Part shown: positions 52,797-60,210 of the stretch, piece after piece
Layout of the letters: each line of letters begins with the position of its first letter
Numbering within the stretch: the stretch's first letter is position 1
IMG/VR virus record: IMGVR_UViG_3300033148_003055
Span: 1 to 64,000 of that record
Strand: one strand, 5' to 3'
Source of the DNA: a virus
DNA: 64,000 bases
The notes under the pieces: model-generated
Told to the model about the DNA's origin: nothing
The model's database searches: none
The model's input: only the letters and a program-made list of their open reading frames with translations
Translations under genes and position numbers: made by a program

Positions 52797-53438
52797 TCAT
52801 TTGCGTGCCTCCTTAACCGCAGGCAGCATTGTCTCGAACACTGCCTGTGCAAATCCACGAGGGGTGATAGACCCTAGCTCTGGTCTGTCTTTCCCAGACA
52901 AATAGTGAATGAAGTTCGGGTCCGTGATCTCTGTTTCCTTCTGAGGGGGTTGCTGGAAACCTGCCCCGCACCATATACAAGTCCTCTTCGGGTACCCATC
53001 CACCGGTGGGTCGAAGTATCCCCCGTACTCCCAAGGATGGAAGGTCCAGTCGGGCTTCCTCCATGCTCGCGTCAAGCGCCCTACGGGGTTCTCCAACATC
53101 CACGGGGCTCCGGCGGCTGTAAGCAAGTCACGGCAGCGGAAGGCGAGATGGGTCGCCTCGTGGTAGACTGGGGCGCCCTTACCTTCCCACCACCTAGCCC
53201 CGGACCCGGCTAAGTCGGTACACGGCGGGAACGCGAATCCGATCGCGACGCGTGACAACGGGAACGGGGGCGCCCAAGTTAGAACATTGGCTGCCACCCG
53301 CATTATACCGTCGGCCCCAAAACCTCGGCTGGTCAGGGCCGAGTCAACTATCCAGCAGTCGAAGCCTTCCTCAACCCACGGCCTTACCATGATCCCGGAT
53401 TTATCACAGAGACTCAGTACGATCCGGCGCCCTTTCAC
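52797..53438 (-). CDS. Dcm-like minimal C5 methyltransferase
   Basis: LSLCDKSG, FPPCTDLAGSGARWW, ENPVG, KRTCIW, TPRGFA. Confidence 0.8.
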   Translation of the reverse strand: MKGRRIVLSLCDKSGIMVRPWVEEGFDCWIVDSALTSRGFGADGIMRVAANVLTWAPPFPLSRVAIGFAFPPCTDLAGSGARWWEGKGAPVYHEATHLAFRCRDLLTAAGAPWMLENPVGRLTRAWRKPDWTFHPWEYGGYFDPPVDGYPKRTCIWCGAGFQQPPQKETEITDPNFIHYLSGKDRPELGSITPRGFAQAVFETMLPAVKEARK

Positions 53439-55201
53439 TTCGGCACCTCCACTTCGCGTTTGCGTTCCCAGCTGATGGTCGACAGCTCCGCCTCGATCTC
53501 GAGGGGAACGTCGAACATCGGGAAATCAATCATCAGCACACGGATGTCCTTCAGATACCCCGGCAGGTCGCGGAGCCGGGCCCGTGGGTACTCGATCACG
53601 ATCTCGTCGTGGATCGGGAGCAGGATACGGACCTCACCGCCGGTCGCCTGCTCGTTGTAGCGGTGGACCCGGTTCTGCGCCCGCTTCAGGATACCGGCCG
53701 CCGTCCCCTGGACGTAGTAGTTCGTGCCCATGTAGGCCTTGTCCCTGGGGACGTAGAGCCGGCGGCCGAAGGCGGTCGTTACGTAACCCTGCGCCTTGAC
53801 GATCTCTGAGATCGTATCGCAGAGCCCGGTATACTTCGGGAACCGGGCCCGGTACGCCTGGATGCCGACCCGTGCCGCCTTGCCGGACAGGCCCAGGGTC
53901 ACCGCCAGCTTCCGGTCGGTGGCTCCGTAGGGCGCGGCGAAGTTCGCGTTCTTGGCGGCGGTCCTGAGGGTCTTCCGCATGGCCTTCTTGGCGTCCTTCC
54001 ATCGTCCACCGTAGACGTAGAACTCGGACCCGGCGAGGGAGTGCATGTCCCCGTCGCCGAAGTTGATGCACTTCAGCATCTCGTCGTCCCTCGACTCGTG
54101 GACGAGGATGCGAGCCTCGATGCCGGCGTAGTCGACGTGGATGTTGACGTACCCGGGGCGCGGCATGAATGCCTCGCGGGCCGGGACCGTGAACGGGTTC
54201 AGGAGCACAGAGGACTTCGCCACGTTCTGGAGGTTGGGGTTCTCACAGCTCTGCCGCGAGGTAACCGCCGCGCAGGTGTTGATCGTCGGATGGATGATCG
54301 CGTCGTCCCCAGCGAGCTCGAGGTACTTCTCCAAGGTCGTGGCCCCCTTCGAGAAGGTCCGTATCTTCATAATGAGGTCCAGGGCCGGGTGCGCCGTCTG
54401 CTCCCGGAGTTCCATGAGGACGAACTTGTTCGTCGACGCCTTTCGGTCCTTCTTGGTCAAGGCCAAGACCGGCATCCCCAGGTCCCGGTAGAGGAATTGG
54501 CGTAGCTGCGGTGGGCTGTCGATGTTGAACCGGCGTCCGGCGATGTCGAAGAGATCGTCGCGGAGCGTCTCCGTGTCTGCGCTGAGTACGCGTATCATCT
54601 TCTCGGTCCGCTTGCGGTTGACCATCAGGCCACGCTCTTCCATTCGCATCGTCGCCCAGATGAGTTCGATCTCGGTGTTGTAGCATTCCACCCACCGCGG
54701 GTCGGCCTGAATCTTTGGCCAGAAGAACAGGTACAGGAGCATCCCCCGCTCGGCATCTGCGTGCTGGTACTCGGTCATGATATGCTCGGGGACCTTGTGG
54801 TAACCTCCGCACTTGTTCGCCATCTTCTTGACCGGGGAGTCCACCTTCGGATACTCCGCCAGTTCCCAAGCGAGGTTGTCGAGCGAGTGACCGTAGTGAT
54901 GGTTCTGGAGCAATTTCGACATCATGAGGGTGTCGTGAACGGTGTGCTCGTCGAGCCTGCGCCCTAGCCATTTCTCCGTCATCTGCGCGTCGAACTTGAG
55001 ATTGTGGCAACACTTCGCCACCGACGTGTCGGACCAGAACTTCGCCAGCCTCTTCTTCCCCTGAAGCTGGCGGAGCGGTCGCCCGTCGAGCCGCTGGACG
55101 AATGTTTTCCCATCCTCATCGCACGTGCTGTACGAGAACATCCCGGCGCCATGATGGGCCCGGAGTCCCGTCGTCTCTGTGTCGTAAGCGATGGTCTTCA
55201 T
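53435..55201 (-). CDS. polA: DNA polymerase family A (3'-5' exo + polymerase)
   Basis: DTETTG, HNLKFD, NPNLQN, DYAGIEAR, R..AKNANF..YG, NYYVQGTAA, IHDE. Confidence 0.96.
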   Translation of the reverse strand: MKTIAYDTETTGLRAHHGAGMFSYSTCDEDGKTFVQRLDGRPLRQLQGKKRLAKFWSDTSVAKCCHNLKFDAQMTEKWLGRRLDEHTVHDTLMMSKLLQNHHYGHSLDNLAWELAEYPKVDSPVKKMANKCGGYHKVPEHIMTEYQHADAERGMLLYLFFWPKIQADPRWVECYNTEIELIWATMRMEERGLMVNRKRTEKMIRVLSADTETLRDDLFDIAGRRFNIDSPPQLRQFLYRDLGMPVLALTKKDRKASTNKFVLMELREQTAHPALDLIMKIRTFSKGATTLEKYLELAGDDAIIHPTINTCAAVTSRQSCENPNLQNVAKSSVLLNPFTVPAREAFMPRPGYVNIHVDYAGIEARILVHESRDDEMLKCINFGDGDMHSLAGSEFYVYGGRWKDAKKAMRKTLRTAAKNANFAAPYGATDRKLAVTLGLSGKAARVGIQAYRARFPKYTGLCDTISEIVKAQGYVTTAFGRRLYVPRDKAYMGTNYYVQGTAAGILKRAQNRVHRYNEQATGGEVRILLPIHDEIVIEYPRARLRDLPGYLKDIRVLMIDFPMFDVPLEIEAELSTISWERKREVEVPK

Positions 55202-55224
55202 GTCCTGACTACGCCCCTAATGGT

Positions 55225-55246
55225 GGGGGCGGGGTGTCCCGCCCCC
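55225..55246 (-). terminator. Hairpin closing the TIGR array
   Basis: GGGGGCGGG-N4-CCCGCCCCC 9-bp perfect stem abutting the last repeat; no clear U-tract. Confidence 0.55.
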
Positions 55247-55614
55247 GGTCGCTCTGCAAGTTTGATTCTCTCAGCCCGGATGGCTCGCTCATGAAAGATG
55301 GTTCTCTCTCCGTCCGTGGCTCGCTCGTACGTTATGGTTCTCTCGTAACGTTTGGCTCGCTCTGCGTCGCTGGTTCTCTCCGGCACTTTGGCTCGCTCGA
55401 ACCGCTTGGTTCTCTCACAAAGAATGGCTCGCTCGCGGACTGTGGTTCTCTCGAGGGCGGTGGCTCGCTCTGGCAACGTGGTTCGCTCATGAGCAATGGC
55501 TCGCTCCGGCAACGTGGTTCTCTCCGAAGGTCTGGCTCGCTCTTCAATTCTGGTTCCCTCGACGGTAGTGGCTCGCTCCTTTGCATTGGTTCTCTCAAGA
55601 CAAATGGCTCGATC
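55245..55614 (-). ncRNA. TIGR-like array: ten 36-nt units with alternating repeats and two short spacers
   Basis: GAGCGAGCCA-N8-GAGAGAACCA-N8 repeated with exact 18/36-nt period, immediately downstream of the Nop/IS110-like gene. Confidence 0.9.
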
Positions 55615-55619
55615 TCTCA

Positions 55620-56516
55620 TTACTTTGGCTCGATCACATGCACGTGGTCACCGTGGGCGATCGGGTACGGCAGCGGAACCGGAAGGCCCAACTGCTCTCG
55701 CCCCACCTGCCAGTAGTGCGAGATGAAGAGCTTGACGGCGTACCGCTTCGCCCTCGACTGGATGTGACCCGGGGGCAGCATCGGTGTACCCTCCCCCACC
55801 TCCAGCTTGGTCAGCTTCTTCGCCCAGTCGGAGGGGGCAAGCCCTTCCATCCTGAGGGCCTTCACATCGTCACCGTTGAATCTGGCGGCGTACCACGGGT
55901 GGGCGTCGGTACTCTTGCCAACGCGGTCCGCCCCCGCGGCGGCCTGCTCGGAGTAATCGCCGACCTCGTTCTTGGCCGCCTCGTAAGCCTTCCGCTCCTG
56001 GTAGTACCGGGCGTAGGTGGCCTTGTCATTGTTCGAGACTTTGACGAAGCTCTCCCCGATCTTCCAGCAGAGCACCTTCAGCTTGGCATTCCACGGACGC
56101 TTCTGCCCCTTCGCCCACACGGACGAGGGGTCCAACCCCGCGAACCGCCAGACCGCGCCCGCCGTCTGCGCCTTGTGGATGTCGATATGGGCCAGCAAAC
56201 CGGCGGCGATCACGGGTCCGATCCCGAGCTGCGACCGCGCCCACTCGCCCAGAGGGTTCGATTTGCTGTACTTGTCGAGGGCCTTCTTCACCTCGTTCTC
56301 CAGCAGCCGGGCGTTCTCGCCGAGCCACCCCACGACCGTATGCGGCTCTTCACTCTTGGTGAGAGCCCTGACCTGATTCTCGGCCCGCTTTCGGTTGTCC
56401 TGCATCTGGTAGTAGGAATCGACCAGATACCGAACCTCCTGGGGCGACAGGGTCGTGGCTGCGTTCCGTATGTCCTTGGTCATCTTCTGGGCCGCTTCGA
56501 GTTCTACACTCATCAC
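55620..56516 (-). CDS. tasA: Tas-like Nop-domain RNA-binding protein lacking a nuclease domain (TasA-type)
   Basis: Coiled coil + GIGPVIAAGLLAHID...WRFAGL...WNAKLK...HIQSRAKRYAVKLF (IS110 C-terminal/Nop-like); no DEDD RuvC or HNH; adjacent dual-spacer array. Confidence 0.85.
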   Translation of the reverse strand: MMSVELEAAQKMTKDIRNAATTLSPQEVRYLVDSYYQMQDNRKRAENQVRALTKSEEPHTVVGWLGENARLLENEVKKALDKYSKSNPLGEWARSQLGIGPVIAAGLLAHIDIHKAQTAGAVWRFAGLDPSSVWAKGQKRPWNAKLKVLCWKIGESFVKVSNNDKATYARYYQERKAYEAAKNEVGDYSEQAAAGADRVGKSTDAHPWYAARFNGDDVKALRMEGLAPSDWAKKLTKLEVGEGTPMLPPGHIQSRAKRYAVKLFISHYWQVGREQLGLPVPLPYPIAHGDHVHVIEPK

Positions 56517-56590
56517 ACTCTCCTTTCGAAGCTACGGCTTCGGGGTGGGCGGTGTCCTTAGTCCTGCCCACCCGTCAGCCGCTCCCCTCG

Positions 56591-56899
56591 CTACGTTGAT
56601 GCCCTCACGGCCCTCGACACGGGGCCGTACCATATCGTCGCGATCACCAGCAGGATGATAGCGGGCTCCGCTACGCGGACCCAGTTCTCCATCTGCCGGT
56701 ACGCCTGAATGCGGGCGTACCCGTCCCAGTCGTCCACGAGCTGGGAGACGGCTTCGGTCTGTATCTCGTCAACCTCAGCCCGCAGGATGTGCTGGCCGAG
56801 CGCCGCGACCACGGCCACGAGCGCCGTCGTCAGTAACACCCGAACCCCCAGGCCGAACGGCGAGTCCGTCTTCGGTCTCTCCAGCTCCCCGTAGATCAC
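56591..56899 (-). CDS. Two-TM membrane protein
   Basis: Two hydrophobic segments; GGAGGTG RBS. Confidence 0.6.
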   Translation of the reverse strand: MIYGELERPKTDSPFGLGVRVLLTTALVAVVAALGQHILRAEVDEIQTEAVSQLVDDWDGYARIQAYRQMENWVRVAEPAIILLVIATIWYGPVSRAVRAST

Positions 56900-56956
56900 T
56901 CGTCACCTCCTTCCGACCGGGGGCGTTAGACCTCGCCCCCGGCCTAGCCGCCGTGG

Positions 56957-57847
56957 CTACTTCTTCGTCTTCTTCTTCTTCTTGGACTTCTTCTTCTTCT
57001 TGTCCTTGGCCTTGGGCTTGTCCTTGGACTTCTTCTTCGCCTTGGCCTTCTTCTTGGACTTCGGCTCGGGCTCCGGCTCCGACAGCTTGATGCCGTGCTT
57101 CTCACAGAGCTCGACCTCTTCCTCGACCAGCTCGCTCGAGTCGTACTCGAACTTCTTGAGGCGCTTGACGAGGGACTCGACGTCGTCGTCCTCCTTGACC
57201 TTGGCCTCGAGGGTCTGGGCCAGGGCGATCAGCTCGTCCAGGTCCTCTTCCTCGTCGTCCCCGCCTTCGTCCTCGTCCTCGCCGTCCTCGTCTCCGTCGG
57301 AGTCGTCGCCGTCCTCATCGGCGTCTTCCTCTCCGTCCTCGTCCCCATCGTCGTCGTCCGCGTCCCCGTCCTCTTCGGCATCCTCATCCTCGGGCTCGCC
57401 ATCGTCCTCGCCACCGACCACGGCAGCGTCCCCGTCGAGCAGGCGGGTGATGGTGATGTTGGTGAACCCGTCCTTGCTGGTCTTGACCTTGACCATGACG
57501 ATCGGGTTCGCGTCGGCGATCTCTTCGATGACTTCCTCGAGGTCTGCCATCTGGTCGGGGACCTCGCGGCCGAGCTTCTCGATCCGCTGCATCGCGAACT
57601 TCCTAGCCCAGTCGCTCTCGCTCTCGAGCTGCGAGTAGTCGCGGATGTTCTCCCCGGCCATGTCGCCCTCGAGGCAAACCCATCCCCACTTGATCATGAG
57701 CTTGCTGGTGTTCTGGGACTCGACGAGCTCCGCGTCCTCAAGCTGGAGCTTGTAGATTCCGTCCTCGAACTCGGTGCCGCCCAGCGACTTGCTGGACTCC
57801 CAGTTGCCCTGCATCTTGCCAAGGCGTTTCCCGAAACTGCTACCCAT
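56957..57847 (-). CDS. ssDNA-binding protein-like (DUF669-type OB fold) with acidic tract and Lys-rich tail
   Basis: EDGIYKLQL..AELVES...MIKW.W...EGDMAG; follows AAA ATPase. Confidence 0.7.
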   Translation of the reverse strand: MGSSFGKRLGKMQGNWESSKSLGGTEFEDGIYKLQLEDAELVESQNTSKLMIKWGWVCLEGDMAGENIRDYSQLESESDWARKFAMQRIEKLGREVPDQMADLEEVIEEIADANPIVMVKVKTSKDGFTNITITRLLDGDAAVVGGEDDGEPEDEDAEEDGDADDDDGDEDGEEDADEDGDDSDGDEDGEDEDEGGDDEEEDLDELIALAQTLEAKVKEDDDVESLVKRLKKFEYDSSELVEEEVELCEKHGIKLSEPEPEPKSKKKAKAKKKSKDKPKAKDKKKKKSKKKKKTKK

Positions 57848-57873: not shown

Positions 57874-58860
57874 TTAGAGAGCACGTCGCCCGACCTTCCG
57901 CTTCCCTCCCTCCTTGGATTTCTTCTTGGACTTCCTCCTGGGCCGACGCGCTTCTTCCTTGCCCGCCTTCCTGAAGAACTTCTTCACCACAGAGCTGGCC
58001 GTCGCCGTCGGCACCAGAGTCTTCGGGTCGAGCCCGACGTCCTCCCCGTTGAAGGCGGCCTGCAGAATCTCGAACCCTCCCTCCTTGGTGAGCGGTATGA
58101 ACCGCGGCAGAGGGGCTCCGATCTCCCGGGCGCCCGCCCAGATGACCTCGTCCCCTTCGGTGATGATGACACGCTCCGTCGTCCCTGCGGACGAACGGAT
58201 GTACTCGACGTAGAAGAACAGGTCGACCAGAGCCTCGACGACCCCGCGTGCCTGTCCGCTCATCGTCGGCGTGATCCGGGTGTACTCCTCGCCGCCCTGG
58301 GGTTTGATACTGACCTCCTTGGCGTGCGAGGTGAAGCAGAGACCCCGGCCCGTCTGGAGGATGCGGTGGACCGTCGTCATGAACTCGGACCTGACCGCCG
58401 CCCACCCCTTGCCGTACGCCTCTTCTGACGGGTGGTCGATGCCGAGCTTCTCCCGGCAGATGTACTCCATGCACATGTCGTACGCCCGGTCGACCGTATC
58501 GATGACGACGGTCTTGAACCGGTCCGTCTTCTCCAGGAGATCGACCGCCGCCTTGAGCAGCTTCCAGTTCTTGCACCCACCACTCTCGTGGTTGTACTCG
58601 AATATCTCAAGGCCTTTCGTCCCCGGCTCCGTCGTCAGGAACAGGGTGTCCGGGTACGACGACAGGAACGTCGACTTCCCGATCTTCTCCCGCCCGTAGA
58701 GCAGGAGCGTGTACTGGAGCAGGTCCGTGATCGCCTCCTTCTTCTCGTCCGGCAGCTCCGGGGGCGGTGCCGGCTTCGCGAATTTACGCTTTCCTCCTTT
58801 TGACTTTGCGCTTTTGCTTGGCCGCTTTTTCTCCACCTTCTCCACTGCCATCGTCATCAT
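57874..58860 (-). CDS. AAA_24 / Sak4-like ATPase
   Basis: LLYGREKIGKST, TEPG, VVIDTVD, YGKGW, TSH. Confidence 0.9.
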   Translation of the reverse strand: MMTMAVEKVEKKRPSKSAKSKGGKRKFAKPAPPPELPDEKKEAITDLLQYTLLLYGREKIGKSTFLSSYPDTLFLTTEPGTKGLEIFEYNHESGGCKNWKLLKAAVDLLEKTDRFKTVVIDTVDRAYDMCMEYICREKLGIDHPSEEAYGKGWAAVRSEFMTTVHRILQTGRGLCFTSHAKEVSIKPQGGEEYTRITPTMSGQARGVVEALVDLFFYVEYIRSSAGTTERVIITEGDEVIWAGAREIGAPLPRFIPLTKEGGFEILQAAFNGEDVGLDPKTLVPTATASSVVKKFFRKAGKEEARRPRRKSKKKSKEGGKRKVGRRAL

Positions 58861-59788
58861 CCTCCAATTCGCGGAACAGTTTGCGCGTCTGCGCGAAGCC
58901 TACGTTGTCACCCGATGCACACATGTCCAGGAACTCGCACGACCACATCCCGACGCACGCCTGTCGGCGACGGTAGGTCGGAAGGTCGCCCGCCACCCAG
59001 GCGGCGAAGTCCTTCAGGATCGCCTCGAGCTCGTCCTCGAAGGTCTTCACAACCACCTTCGGGAATGTCAGCTCGAACCGCTTGAAGTAATGGTCGGGAC
59101 GCTCGTAGGCGTCCTTCCGAATACGGGCGATGAACCCGGTCTCGTCCTCCCCCTTCTTCTGCTTGAGCTGCGGGTTGCGGATGATGTTGTACAGCGCCCC
59201 CTTCACCGGGTCGTCCATCATCGCCTTCAGGGCCGTCAAGTAGAAGAGAGTCTGCCAGTCAAACGACAGGGACGACGTGAGGGCGTCCTCGGAGATTCTG
59301 CCCTTGGTCTTCGTCTCCAGCATCCAGACTGACTTCGCCTTCCTGAAAACCCCGTCGATCCTGCCGCGGAGGCGGAACCCACGGAACATCACGTCGAACA
59401 CCGGCTCGACCGCGATCCACTCCCGCTTGATGTCGGAGGTGTGCTCGTTCAGGTACTCCCCCAGGACGGCCCGGGCCCGGTTCGCCTCGAGCTCCATCTC
59501 CTGGGCTTGGTAGGCGTCCGAGCTGCCGACGATGTTCTTCCTCAGGGATTTGGTGATGCTCCGCTCGATCACCCGCTCCAGATTCCCGACGGCTCCCCTC
59601 CCCATCGCCTTGTATAGTTCCTCAAGTGCGGAGTGGACCATCGACCCAAACCGCATCGCCGACTTCGAGCTTGTCTTCTTCTCCCAGCCGGAGAGGGTCA
59701 AGCCCATCCTCTCCCGGCAGTCGAGGAACGCCGCCAGCATAGATTGCGTGGCGCCGTCTTCGATAGTGTACCCGGTCTTCCAAGTCAT
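58784..59788 (-). CDS. PD-(D/E)XK (Cas4/RecB-like) exonuclease
   Basis: C..R, FGSMVHSALE, GRIDG, ETKT, Q..FY, C....CEF..MC. Confidence 0.9.
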   Translation of the reverse strand: MTWKTGYTIEDGATQSMLAAFLDCRERMGLTLSGWEKKTSSKSAMRFGSMVHSALEELYKAMGRGAVGNLERVIERSITKSLRKNIVGSSDAYQAQEMELEANRARAVLGEYLNEHTSDIKREWIAVEPVFDVMFRGFRLRGRIDGVFRKAKSVWMLETKTKGRISEDALTSSLSFDWQTLFYLTALKAMMDDPVKGALYNIIRNPQLKQKKGEDETGFIARIRKDAYERPDHYFKRFELTFPKVVVKTFEDELEAILKDFAAWVAGDLPTYRRRQACVGMWSCEFLDMCASGDNVGFAQTRKLFRELEDDDDGSGEGGEKAAKQKRKVKRRKA

Positions 59789-59805
59789 TCCGTCACCTCC
59801 TTCTC

Positions 59806-60210
59806 TCACCCTACCACATTTCTGGTCCGCCATCCAGCCTGAAAATATCTCGACCCCGCGCAGATGCGGACGCCCTCGCTGCCCTTATCGTACGGAACGT
59901 CCCCCTTGTTGTCTGGCCAAGGCTTGTACGGCATCAGCTTGTCTGGGTCGAACCGACCGCCGAAGTACGACGGGCGCTTCTCCCTGCCGGTCATGGCCGG
60001 GAACACGAACCGCGTCGGGAGCTGGAACGGAAGCTCGAGTTCCCACCGCTCCTCGCACCGGGAGCAGAGGCACTTCGCGATCCCGACTGCCAGCTTGCTC
60101 TGGGAAGAGTACCCGGTCATCGTCACCTCGTAAGACCCGCACTTCGGGCACTTAGCCCGCCAGTCCAGCAGGTGGGCGACCACTATGTCCTTCGGCAGGA
60201 AACTCATCAC
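59806..60210 (-). CDS. Hypothetical zinc-ribbon protein
   Basis: CPKC..CSRC. Confidence 0.55.
   Translation of the reverse strand: MMSFLPKDIVVAHLLDWRAKCPKCGSYEVTMTGYSSQSKLAVGIAKCLCSRCEERWELELPFQLPTRFVFPAMTGREKRPSYFGGRFDPDKLMPYKPWPDNKGDVPYDKGSEGVRICAGSRYFQAGWRTRNVVG

Follow-up and report, generated by a model that had tools for sequence, protein, structure and literature searches.

A nuclease-less TasA gene and its dual-repeat TIGR array, very probably a functional system, in a complete 81.6-kb phage genome

TIGR-Tas systems of the dual-repeat type have been defined by an array lying beside a tas gene, in which two alternating repeats of 8-12 nt are separated by spacers of ~8-9 nt to make up a 36-nt unit that recurs several times (as described in PMC12045711). 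In the arrays described there the first edge repeat is as a rule degenerate, the last edge repeat is truncated and a rho-independent terminator stands after the array, and the end motifs of the repeats can diverge, yet co-vary between edge and loop. The same report gives TasA as the commonest Tas form, binding 36-nt RNAs, and describes the FpTasA systems of Flavonifractor plautii, where a solo Nop-domain Tas protein accompanies a dual-repeat array (Faure et al. 2025, PMC12045711). Guide-dependent DNA binding and transcriptional repression by TasA proteins have been reported in a preprint (10.64898/2026.09.09.750476), and guide-dependent, reversible DNA binding with gene silencing is ascribed to MbTasA, CsTasR and PlTasA in the preprints of Xu et al. 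(2026) and Guan et al. (2026). For guide maturation, residues Y289 and H296 of SpTasH are reported as catalytic in the processing of pre-tigRNA (PMC13421893, NAR 2026), and TaTasR is reported to require help for processing (preprint 10.64898/2026.08.11.744272). The published tas loci number 20,096, and the published set of dual-repeat arrays (TIGRSafari) 4,126. An NCBI family model for Tas exists already.

The locus analysed here lies in a phage genome that is complete (81,558 bp, with direct terminal repeats) and uncultured, and of which the window, the whole stretch of DNA under analysis, covers 64,000 nucleotides. On the minus strand of this window tasA (55620..56516), a gene encoding a nuclease-less TIGR-associated Nop-domain protein by NCBIfam, PDB and fold matches, is followed by a dual-repeat TIGR array (55255..55614, minus strand). 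The gene can be read as 298 aa from a GTG at 56516 or as 297 aa from an ATG at 56513, and the ATG is the more likely start because an identical database protein (P0001) is 297 aa long; residue numbers in this text follow the 298-aa version.

That this gene encodes a Nop-domain Tas protein had been proposed in a first-pass annotation made from the sequence alone, and the proposal was borne out by family, structure and fold comparisons. The NCBIfam model NF052498.1 (TIGR_Tas_endo) scored 203.3 bits on TasA, where 100 is the cut-off, with E 4.4e-60 and an alignment spanning model positions 1-213 of 215, and a phmmer search of the PDB returned only two matches, TaTasR (9mty_A, E 5.1e-19) and SpTasH (21kl_A, E 4.1e-16). 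The AlphaFold2 model of the protein (pLDDT 92.9) consists of helices only, and when it was submitted to Foldseek, ranks 1-10 were all TasH or TasR chains, followed by IS110-family recombinases. With VIA-align the model was superposed on SpTasH (9w04_B) with Z 19.0 (rmsd 3.1, 224 aa) and on TaTasR (9mty_B) with Z 17.1 (rmsd 2.7, 190 aa). IS110-family recombinases came after these at Z 12.1-12.7 (IS621 12.7), and unrelated helical proteins scored 7.6 or less. The SpTasH residues Y289 and H296, which belong to the C-terminal loop of the Nop domain, have Y284 and H291 as their counterparts in the alignment; across 45 homologues H291 was invariant and Y284 was present in at least 90%, and all 39 positions that are invariant in the family are kept in this TasA.

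The alignments place residues 21-298 of the model on TasH 64-303 and residues 26-298 on TasR 112-319, with the long helices predicted at 25-54 and 60-85 aligning with the TasH/TasR region ahead of the Nop core. The common core is thus preceded by ~20 residues in TasA, versus 63 in TasH and 111 in TasR. No nuclease domain was found in TasA by Pfam (E up to 1), the model is without strands and the open frame allows at most 303 codons. Because only ~20 residues precede the core, where TasH and TasR hold their nucleases, the protein is of the TasA subtype, with neither HNH nor RuvC fused to the Nop domain, as the first-pass annotation had also read it. The labels that annotation tools attach to this gene are misleading: PHROG gives 'transposase', and NCBIfam gives 'RNA-guided endonuclease' although the nuclease is absent.

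The array is made up of ten 36-nt units, each with an edge repeat GAGCGAGCCA, an 8-nt spacer A, a loop repeat GAGAGAACCA and an 8-nt spacer B, and unit n runs on the minus strand from 55614-36(n-1) down to 55579-36(n-1). Its 20 repeats of 10 nt follow one another at an exact spacing of 18 nt from 55614 to 55255, and direct reading upheld the unit number, strand and exact period first reported, together with all 20 of the spacers then listed. The motif GAGMGARCCA-N8-GAG, allowing at most one mismatch, was found 20 times in the 64-kb window, always within the array, where 100 dinucleotide shuffles averaged 0.67 matches and never exceeded 3; Tandem Repeats Finder reported periods of 18, 36 and 72. 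The repeat consensus first given holds overall, with the exception of the first edge, which is GATCGAGCCA rather than GAGCGAGCCA (one mismatch), and of three deviating loops, GAGGGAACCA in unit 2, GAGCGAACCA in unit 4 and GAGAGAATCA in unit 10. CCA forms the 3' end of 19 of the 20 repeats (the loop of unit 10 ends in TCA), GA begins all 20, and the start motif GAG is common to edge and loop, between which the repeat middles differ, being A-rich (AGAA) in the loop and CGAG in the edge. TaTasR has UG in place of this GAG, and the AAG that begins the Salicola repeats is similar to it.

The array adjoins the gene but, contrary to what had been stated, does not follow directly on its stop: it begins 5 nt further on (TAA at 55622-55620, then TGAGA). 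The last tasA codons (V-I-E-P) hold an exact copy of the first array repeat, GATCGAGCCA, which direct reading places at 55626..55635 on the minus strand, 21 nt upstream of that first repeat. With the AAGTAAT and GAGA that come next, this copy looks like a decayed 'unit 0' containing the tasA stop codon. At the far end a 3'-truncated terminal edge repeat, GAGCGAcc (a '21st repeat'; 55247..55254, minus strand), runs into a closing GC hairpin, GGGGGCGGG-ACAC-CCCGCCCCC (55225..55246, minus strand). This is the 9-bp hairpin that had been noted at first reading, its two arms (55246-55238 and 55233-55225) being 100% complementary around a 4-nt loop; the hairpin region folds over 58 nt with -27.1 kcal/mol (z -2.5). 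The ten units, each of 10+8+10+8 nt and all exactly in step, lie 5 nt from tasA and fit the dual-repeat TIGR definition. The degenerate first edge and the truncated last edge conform to the published rule, in which the hairpin that follows may stand where a terminator is described, so that the array's first identification as a TIGR array agrees with the anatomy described in PMC12045711. Guides elsewhere in the phage genome were not found, the motif having no match with at most one mismatch outside the array and five isolated matches with two mismatches.

The closing hairpin is without a T-run, and an intrinsic terminator scan made no call at the array. It is possibly a terminator or a 3'-end protector, and the missing T-run makes termination ahead of polA uncertain. 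A second, imperfect GC-rich hairpin lies upstream of tasA (56535..56581, minus strand; 16-nt arms, 81% complementary, with 15 nt between them), and the tasA-array cassette is thus bracketed by two hairpins. A scan for sigma-70 promoters gave no sites, and Rfam over 54800-57000 gave nothing relevant (a single chance lncRNA match, E 0.15). The gene for a family A DNA polymerase (53435..55201, minus strand; Pfam DNA_pol_A E 3.4e-66 with a 3'-5' exonuclease domain, PHROG 17 E 1.9e-109) starts on the same strand 24 nt after the closing hairpin. By Pfam and PHROG the polymerase belongs to a surrounding replication/recombination module with a PD-(D/E)XK nuclease (E 2.2e-20) and an AAA_24/Sak4-like protein (E 8.3e-40). 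The label 'SSB' that the upstream gene had been given found no family support in Pfam, PHROG or NCBIfam.

Among relatives of the cassette, 61 of the 80 viral loci carried at least four strict array units on the strand of tas, as did 18 of the 37 loci from cellular genomes, and that many on the strand opposite tas were found in none of the 80 viral and 37 cellular-genome loci. The repeats of the relatives are conserved and their 604 unique spacer pairs differ, with none in common with this phage. Their arrays stand upstream or downstream of tas, range in size between a few repeats and over 80, and include steps of 16, 17, 19 and 20 nt. At most 5 nt past the tas stop, 26 of 78 relatives show a truncated edge by its CA end, followed by spacer-repeat-spacer-repeat, a pattern that a random-position control matched in 330 of 20,000 trials. 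No conserved neighbour genes were seen around tas, and a polA homologue lay within 4 kb in 2 of the 80 relatives, so the replication-operon position claimed at first reading is true of this phage but is not a conserved feature. The 37 relatives from cellular assemblies span Acidobacteriota, Proteobacteria, Firmicutes-like groups, CPR and archaea and give no clue to the host.

Targets of the guides were sought in the phage's own genome by scanning all 81,558 bp on both strands, with the array masked, for the 10 spacer pairs in both half-site arrangements and with gaps of 0-2 bp. This gave no perfect composite site, one site with one mismatch and two with two mismatches, where uniform base frequencies would yield by chance ~0.11 sites with at most one mismatch and ~2.6 with at most two; with three sites at up to two mismatches against ~2.6 by chance, and none perfect, self-targeting was rejected. 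Nor did the spacer words appear to be purged from the phage genome, the 20 words occurring 65 times versus ~70 expected (Markov order 3 and 5). The 604 spacer pairs of the relatives had no exact match in this phage genome (20 shuffled-pair controls gave 0 or 1), the spacer pairs of this phage had none in the 80 viral loci, and all 604 pairs searched against 608 kb of loci, covering ~8 kb per relative, gave one match (controls 0-2). Mutual targeting among phages therefore left no signal in the searched loci, at ~8 kb per relative. A 16-nt site is expected many times by chance in large sequence collections.

We conclude that the locus is very probably a functional dual-repeat TIGR-TasA system, a two-part cassette of tasA and array in a complete phage. 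Since tasA and the array are on one strand and 5 nt apart, they would be cotranscribed, as published systems suggest. In those systems the Tas protein dimerises by way of a central coiled coil, and end motifs common to edge and loop are needed for a symmetric dimer to bind. By analogy, a TasA dimer may grip each unit where its edge and loop end, at CCA (box C) and GAG (box D-like), and Y284 and H291 may cleave the precursor inside the edge repeats to release ten 36-nt tigRNAs, whose two spacers would direct binding to opposite strands of DNA. Guided binding by a protein that carries no nuclease would then block transcription, or perhaps replication, without cutting, on DNA of the host or of a rival mobile element. 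The first-pass annotation had offered two roles for such a DNA binder, of which repression is in line with what has been published for other TasAs, and recruitment of a separate nuclease found no support. Repression by this particular TasA is an extrapolation, because the repressors that have been tested, MbTasA and CsTasR, are not close relatives of it.

It seems improbable that TasA instead brings to its targets a different activity, such as that of the polymerase, the Sak4-like annealing protein or the neighbouring PD-(D/E)XK exonuclease, or that it acts by opening DNA at guided sites to allow replication or recombination. The cassette does sit within a module that supplies the nuclease, the Sak4-like protein and the polymerase, and non-cleaving roles and a strong DNA bend are discussed by Faure et al. 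(PMC12045711); however, the polA homologue near tas in 2 of 80 relatives is joined by homologues of the Sak4-like or exonuclease genes within 4 kb of tas in none of the 80, and there is no origin-like guide match in the phage's own genome, where no site is perfect and the single one-mismatch site compares with ~0.11 expected. Very improbable, in our judgement, is an inactive remnant, in which array and gene no longer yield working guides. The empty target searches and the 4 of 20 repeats that are off consensus would suit such decay, but the 18-nt register is exact across 360 nt, the gene is intact (pLDDT 92.9) with its catalytic pair and 39 invariant positions kept, and deviant repeats at array ends are described as normal in TIGR arrays (PMC12045711).

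We give hardly any credence to a protein-coding origin of the repeats, in which a 140-aa ORF (55198-55620) would encode a 12-residue repeat peptide (ERA.....ERT.....). Although an ATG overlapping the stop of tasA opens this ORF, and the 36-nt period divides by three, stops are missing altogether from two of the six reading frames through the array and a third contains a single one; with several frames open or nearly so, the openness reflects repeat composition and not coding. The ORF has no Pfam family, the steps of 16, 17, 19 and 20 nt in the relatives would break any frame, the position and length of the array vary, and the spacers are unrelated between loci. The first-pass annotation had named conservation of the repeat peptide rather than of the nucleotide repeats as evidence against its own reading. 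Across the relatives the nucleotide repeats are what is conserved, and the repeat-peptide reading was rejected. Just as little can be said for an IS110-family transposase beside unrelated repeats, a reading to which PHROG 4285 ('transposase', E 7.5e-49) and a weak match to PF02371 (E 0.0011) point. The PF02371 match reaches 19.7 bits where the cut-off is 21.3 and covers 36 residues only, and NF033542 gives 23.6 bits but would require 140, so that the family cut-offs reject this reading. An N-terminal catalytic DEDD domain is absent by Pfam, in the model and in the fold alignment, by fold IS621 and ISCro4 (Z 12.1-12.7) stand clearly further off than TasH and TasR (17.1-19.0), and the 'transposase' labels are older than TIGR-Tas.

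For the TIGR-TasA system itself, the spacers give a hint of how guides might change. It is possible, though on balance we would not assume it, that arrays of this TasA clade renew by half-guide exchange, a spacer A or B gaining a new partner through recombination at the short repeats. The spacers B of units 3 and 4 are CGTTGCCG and CGTTGCCA, next to unrelated spacers A, and unit 4 also carries a hybrid edge/loop repeat (GAGCGAACCA); these two units would be a fresh example of such an exchange. In 50 non-redundant arrays, near-identical spacers of the same type were found in 47 of 9,108 comparisons within arrays versus 217 of 347,898 between arrays (~eightfold), and A-to-B similarity in the same 50 arrays was up only ~twofold within arrays compared with between them. 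Among the matching comparisons were 25 whose partner spacers disagree at no fewer than 4 positions out of 8. Alternatively, near-identical spacers could arise if natural targets come in families with one half-site in common. Half-guide reuse is apparently not addressed in what the literature on tigRNA spacer duplication, as far as it was accessible, reports; if true, half-guide exchange would be a first handle on how TIGR arrays gain guide combinations without adaptation genes.

This kind of system is already published (Faure 2025, PMC12045711; TasA repressors, Xu 2026), and the locus is a clean new example and no new class. It adds a complete and well-preserved dual-repeat TIGR-TasA system in a finished 81.6-kb phage genome. 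Unlike most metagenomic TIGR loci, it comes with the whole genome of its phage and so permits a self-target test, the outcome of which was that the guides spare the phage itself. Because its repeats are almost those of the Salicola system, which has been tested biochemically, and the self-processing Tyr/His pair is kept, TasA is also a candidate compact (297-aa) nuclease-free programmable DNA binder.

Set against described systems, the more remote likenesses lie outside TIGR-Tas. The IS110-family bridge-RNA recombinases IS621 and ISCro4 share with TasA an RNA-binding Nop-type domain (Z 12.1-12.7) and the logic of an RNA with two guides, and differ in that they recombine DNA, work with a single bridge RNA and carry a DEDD catalytic domain. 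Nop5 of the box C/D snoRNP has an RNA-binding Nop-type domain and two-guide RNA logic in common with TIGR-Tas and was absent among the fold matches listed for the TasA model. TaTasR, from a Thermoproteota archaeon (9mty), shares the Nop core and the coiled-coil helices (Z 17.1), and its array is likewise of the dual-repeat, 36-nt type with repeats ending in CCA. It differs in its N-terminal RuvC, its 9-nt spacers and its UG start motif, and it has a Trp at the site where SpTasH and the TasA described here have the catalytic Tyr.

Closer in lacking a nuclease are the TasA and dead-TasR repressors MbTasA and CsTasR (Xu et al. 2026) and PlTasA (Guan et al. 2026), as these preprints describe them. 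Stem-loop tigRNAs are given for PlTasA, CsTasR and PateTasR, in contrast to the dual-repeat type found here, and the Tyr/His processing loop that this TasA keeps is reported in a 2026 preprint as missing from the stem-loop clades. FpTIGR, compared here by its published description, has 18 variable nt per guide against 16 in this phage. SpTIGR-TasH of Salicola phage CGphi29 (PDB 9w02-9w04, 9vzx, 21kl) is likewise phage-borne, its array lying downstream of the tas gene and sharing its strand. SpTasH carries an N-terminal HNH (residues 1 to ~63, with no counterpart here) and cuts DNA, whereas TasA is without a nuclease; the two proteins are 28% identical over their common part, and TasA has an extra helical insertion of ~60 residues (~185-247) where TasH has ~22. 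SpTasH is nevertheless the best structural match (Z 19.0), and the Tyr/His processing pair is common to both. The Salicola array also has a 36-nt period, 8-nt spacers and a truncated final edge with a hairpin, and its repeats agree with those of this phage at 9 of 10 positions in the edge (AAGCGAGCCA versus GAGCGAGCCA) and at 8 of 10 in the loop (AAGACAACCA versus GAGAGAACCA).

The minus strand from 55614 to 55255, read directly from the sequence, consists of ten exact 36-nt units, each running from a 10-nt edge repeat GAGCGAGCCA through the 8-nt spacer A and a 10-nt loop repeat GAGAGAACCA to the 8-nt spacer B. The motif GAGMGARCCA-N8-GAG, at up to one mismatch, was found 20 times in the window and 20/20 matches fell within the array, while the shuffled window gave a mean of 0.67 and a maximum of 3. 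The first-pass annotation had listed all 20 spacers correctly (20/20) and its ten 36-nt units stand, but not its uniform first edge and loops or an array start flush with the stop codon: the first edge repeat is GATCGAGCCA, the loop repeats are off consensus in units 2, 4 and 10, and 5 nt separate the tasA stop codon from the array. At its 3' end a truncated 21st repeat (GAGCGAcc, minus strand) runs into a 9-bp hairpin with perfect arms (55246-55225, minus strand; fold -27.1 kcal/mol, z -2.5), after which a terminator scan found no T-run. An extra exact copy of GATCGAGCCA lies at 55635-55626 (minus strand) inside the last tasA codons (I-E-P), 21 nt upstream of the first array repeat, and the AAGTAAT (with the stop codon inside) and GAGA between the two copies look like a decayed first unit. 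Both copies carry T where the remaining edge repeats have G (55605-55635).

In the account given by Faure et al. (PMC12045711), arrays alternate two repeats of 8-12 nt, set apart by short spacers, and most often have 5 to 15 units; their first and last edge repeats are both truncated, and a terminator follows; repeats end 3' in CCA (box C), edge and loop share a start motif, and the loop middle is A-rich. The phage array fits all of these rules but two, its start motif being GAG (not UG) and its hairpin being without a T-run.

The product of 55620-56516 (minus strand) is 298 aa long and the identical database entry 297 aa, so tasA is more likely 297 aa from the ATG at 56513; residue numbers here follow the 298-aa version. 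The sole Pfam match was IS110, below threshold, but the protein scored 203.3 bits (cut-off 100) against the NCBIfam model NF052498.1, 'TIGR-Tas system RNA-guided endonuclease'. Only two proteins matched in a PDB sequence search, the RuvC-bearing TaTasR of a Thermoproteota archaeon (9mty, E 5.1e-19) and the HNH-bearing SpTasH of Salicola phage CGphi29 (E 4.1e-16; 21kl and seven further entries). An AlphaFold2 model built from 45 homologues was all-helical (pLDDT 92.9), and Foldseek placed ten TasH/TasR chains on top, followed by IS110-family recombinases. VIA-align ordered the folds likewise, with SpTasH (Z 19.0, rmsd 3.1 Å, 224 aligned residues) and TaTasR (Z 17.1, 2.7 Å, 190 residues) ahead of IS621 and ISCro4 (Z 12.1-12.7, 3.2-3.6 Å, 176-178 residues) and unrelated helical proteins at Z 7.6 or below. 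The locus is thus a genuine TIGR-TasA system, as proposed from sequence in the first-pass annotation and borne out by the family model, the PDB matches, the fold scores and the array anatomy.

In the same alignments model residues 21-298 pair with TasH 64-303 and residues 26-298 with TasR 112-319, and therefore the HNH and RuvC domains are without counterpart in TasA. This agrees with the earlier reading that no RuvC or HNH is present, as does the tasA open frame of only 303 codons, and the architecture is that of TasA as Faure et al. define it (PMC12045711). Two labels on 55620-56516 are misleading, the 'transposase' of its family PHROG 4285 and the 'RNA-guided endonuclease' of NF052498 for a nuclease-less member. 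At about residues 185-247 (window 55770-55962, minus strand) TasA is lengthened by a helical insertion of some 60 residues, against about 4 residues at this place in TaTasR and about 22 in SpTasH; many homologues have the insertion and others, such as database homologues P0003 and P0051, lack it.

Homologues of TasA numbered 5,225 at E <=0.001 among 7,238 scored candidates, the closest at about 60% identity. In IMG/VR, 96 of 107 pattern matches encode a relative, and among the best 80 of these 96 a loose chain rule gave repeat chains in 68/80 loci, a few of them spurious; a strict rule gave at least four units on the tas strand in 61/80 and on the opposite strand in 0/80, with 776 units overall and, among these, 604 unique spacer pairs. 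Bacterial and archaeal assemblies from many phyla carried such arrays on the tas strand at 18/37 loci and on the opposite strand at 0/37. Both repeats are identical to those of the phage in five viral loci (L030, L042, L054, L059 and L074) at merely 43-50% protein identity, and no spacers are common to the phage and the best 80 viral relatives. In 26/78 viral relatives (L004, L005, L014, L020, L022, L044, L048, L049, L059, L068, L074 and others) an edge repeat truncated at its 5' side, of which the CA end is left, follows the tas stop within 5 nt, which puts the start of the first guide unit at the stop codon; this pattern was matched in 330/20,000 trials with random positions.

Relatives' arrays are found on the upstream or the downstream side of tas, hold from a few to more than 80 repeats and contain 16-20-nt steps, and this variability in position, length and step size is that of a non-coding guide array. 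Among them, 82 repeats precede tas in L016 (2489-3956), all in exact 18-nt register, and 57 follow it in L059 (5037-6055). The alternative, that the array encodes a 140-aa repeat peptide, meets the objection that this ORF stays open simply because no stop codon occurs in the repeats: of the six frames across the array, two hold no stop and a third only one. It was rejected, as relatives' arrays shift place, size and step: the test set out in the first-pass annotation, peptide against nucleotide repeats, came out for the nucleotide repeats, which the relatives keep.

Among 50 non-redundant arrays, same-type spacers were near-identical (no more than one base apart) about 8 times as often within an array as between arrays (A-A and B-B combined, 47/9,108 against 217/347,898); A-B comparisons gave 10/9,706 within and 183/347,898 between. 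The partner spacer was unrelated in 25 of the near-identical same-type comparisons. Units 3 and 4 of the phage (55471-55542, minus strand) are such a case, sharing spacers B (CGTTGCCG and CGTTGCCA) with unrelated spacers A, and the loop repeat of unit 4, GAGCGAACCA, is a hybrid of edge and loop. The within-array similarity may be a hint of half-guide exchange, or of targets that come in families with a common half-site.

SpTasH residues Y289 and H296, described as catalytic in metal-independent pre-tigRNA maturation (PMC13421893, citing Yang et al., Mol Cell 2026), fall on TasA Y284 and H291 in two independent alignments; across the 45 homologues H291 does not vary and Y284 is conserved in at least 90%. 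TaTasR, described in the preprint of Guan et al. as not cutting its own precursor, carries Trp at the aligned position of Y284. We infer that TasA probably matures its own guides.

By homology to SpTasH, tasA and the array would be co-transcribed, a TasA dimer would sit on the CCA and GAG repeat ends, and Y284/H291 would cut inside the edge repeats to give ten 36-nt tigRNAs. TasR/TasH structures and TasA repression suggest that each complex would occupy a 16-18-bp site, with spacers A and B on opposite strands, and that bound TasA would stop transcription or replication without cutting, repression having been described for other TasA proteins (preprint 10.64898/2026.09.09.750476). For none of the ten guides did the phage's own genome contain a perfect composite site, whichever way the half-sites were arranged; the three sites found at 1-2 mismatches match chance, as expected by simple arithmetic, spacer words are not depleted, and no guide units occur outside the array. 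Relatives' guides did not match the phage genome, nor the phage's guides the stretches of relatives that were searched. The targets would therefore probably lie elsewhere, in the host or in other mobile elements.

The virus genome in this record is complete, measuring 81,558 bp and carrying direct terminal repeats. On the same strand as tasA, polA, coding for a family A DNA polymerase, starts 24 nt downstream of the array hairpin; upstream of tasA lie, directly next to it, a 102-aa ORF containing two stretches of hydrophobic residues (56591-56899, minus strand; no PHROG or NCBIfam match), a protein (56957-57829, minus strand) that combines a long acidic stretch with a poly-lysine tail and whose 'SSB' label found no family support at the thresholds used (Pfam, PHROG, NCBIfam), and a Sak4-like AAA_24 protein with a PD-(D/E)XK exonuclease (57874-59833, minus strand). 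The replication-operon setting proposed earlier holds in the phage but not as a conserved feature: in the best 80 of 96 viral relatives a polA homologue lay within 4 kb of tas in 2/80, and no other phage neighbour genes were found near tas. The neighbourhood varies among relatives, and therefore tasA and array move as a unit. GC-rich hairpins without a T-run bracket this cassette (55225-55246 and 56535-56581), and if transcription reads through to polA, guide processing might cut polA off from the message upstream of it. K/R-rich tags (GKRKVGRR, KRKVKRRKA) close the Sak4-like protein and the exonuclease, and TasA has none at either end; a tagless TasA would fit a cassette foreign to the module.

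Systems of the TIGR-Tas kind were already published in 2025-2026, with an existing NCBI family model, and this locus is a further member. The experimentally tested array of Salicola phage CGphi29, read from its record, has edge AAGCGAGCCA, loop AAGACAACCA and 8-nt spacers, its last edge truncated and fused to a hairpin. The phage array agrees with it at 9/10 edge and 8/10 loop positions, and these near-equal repeats accompany TasA and SpTasH proteins that are only 28% identical.
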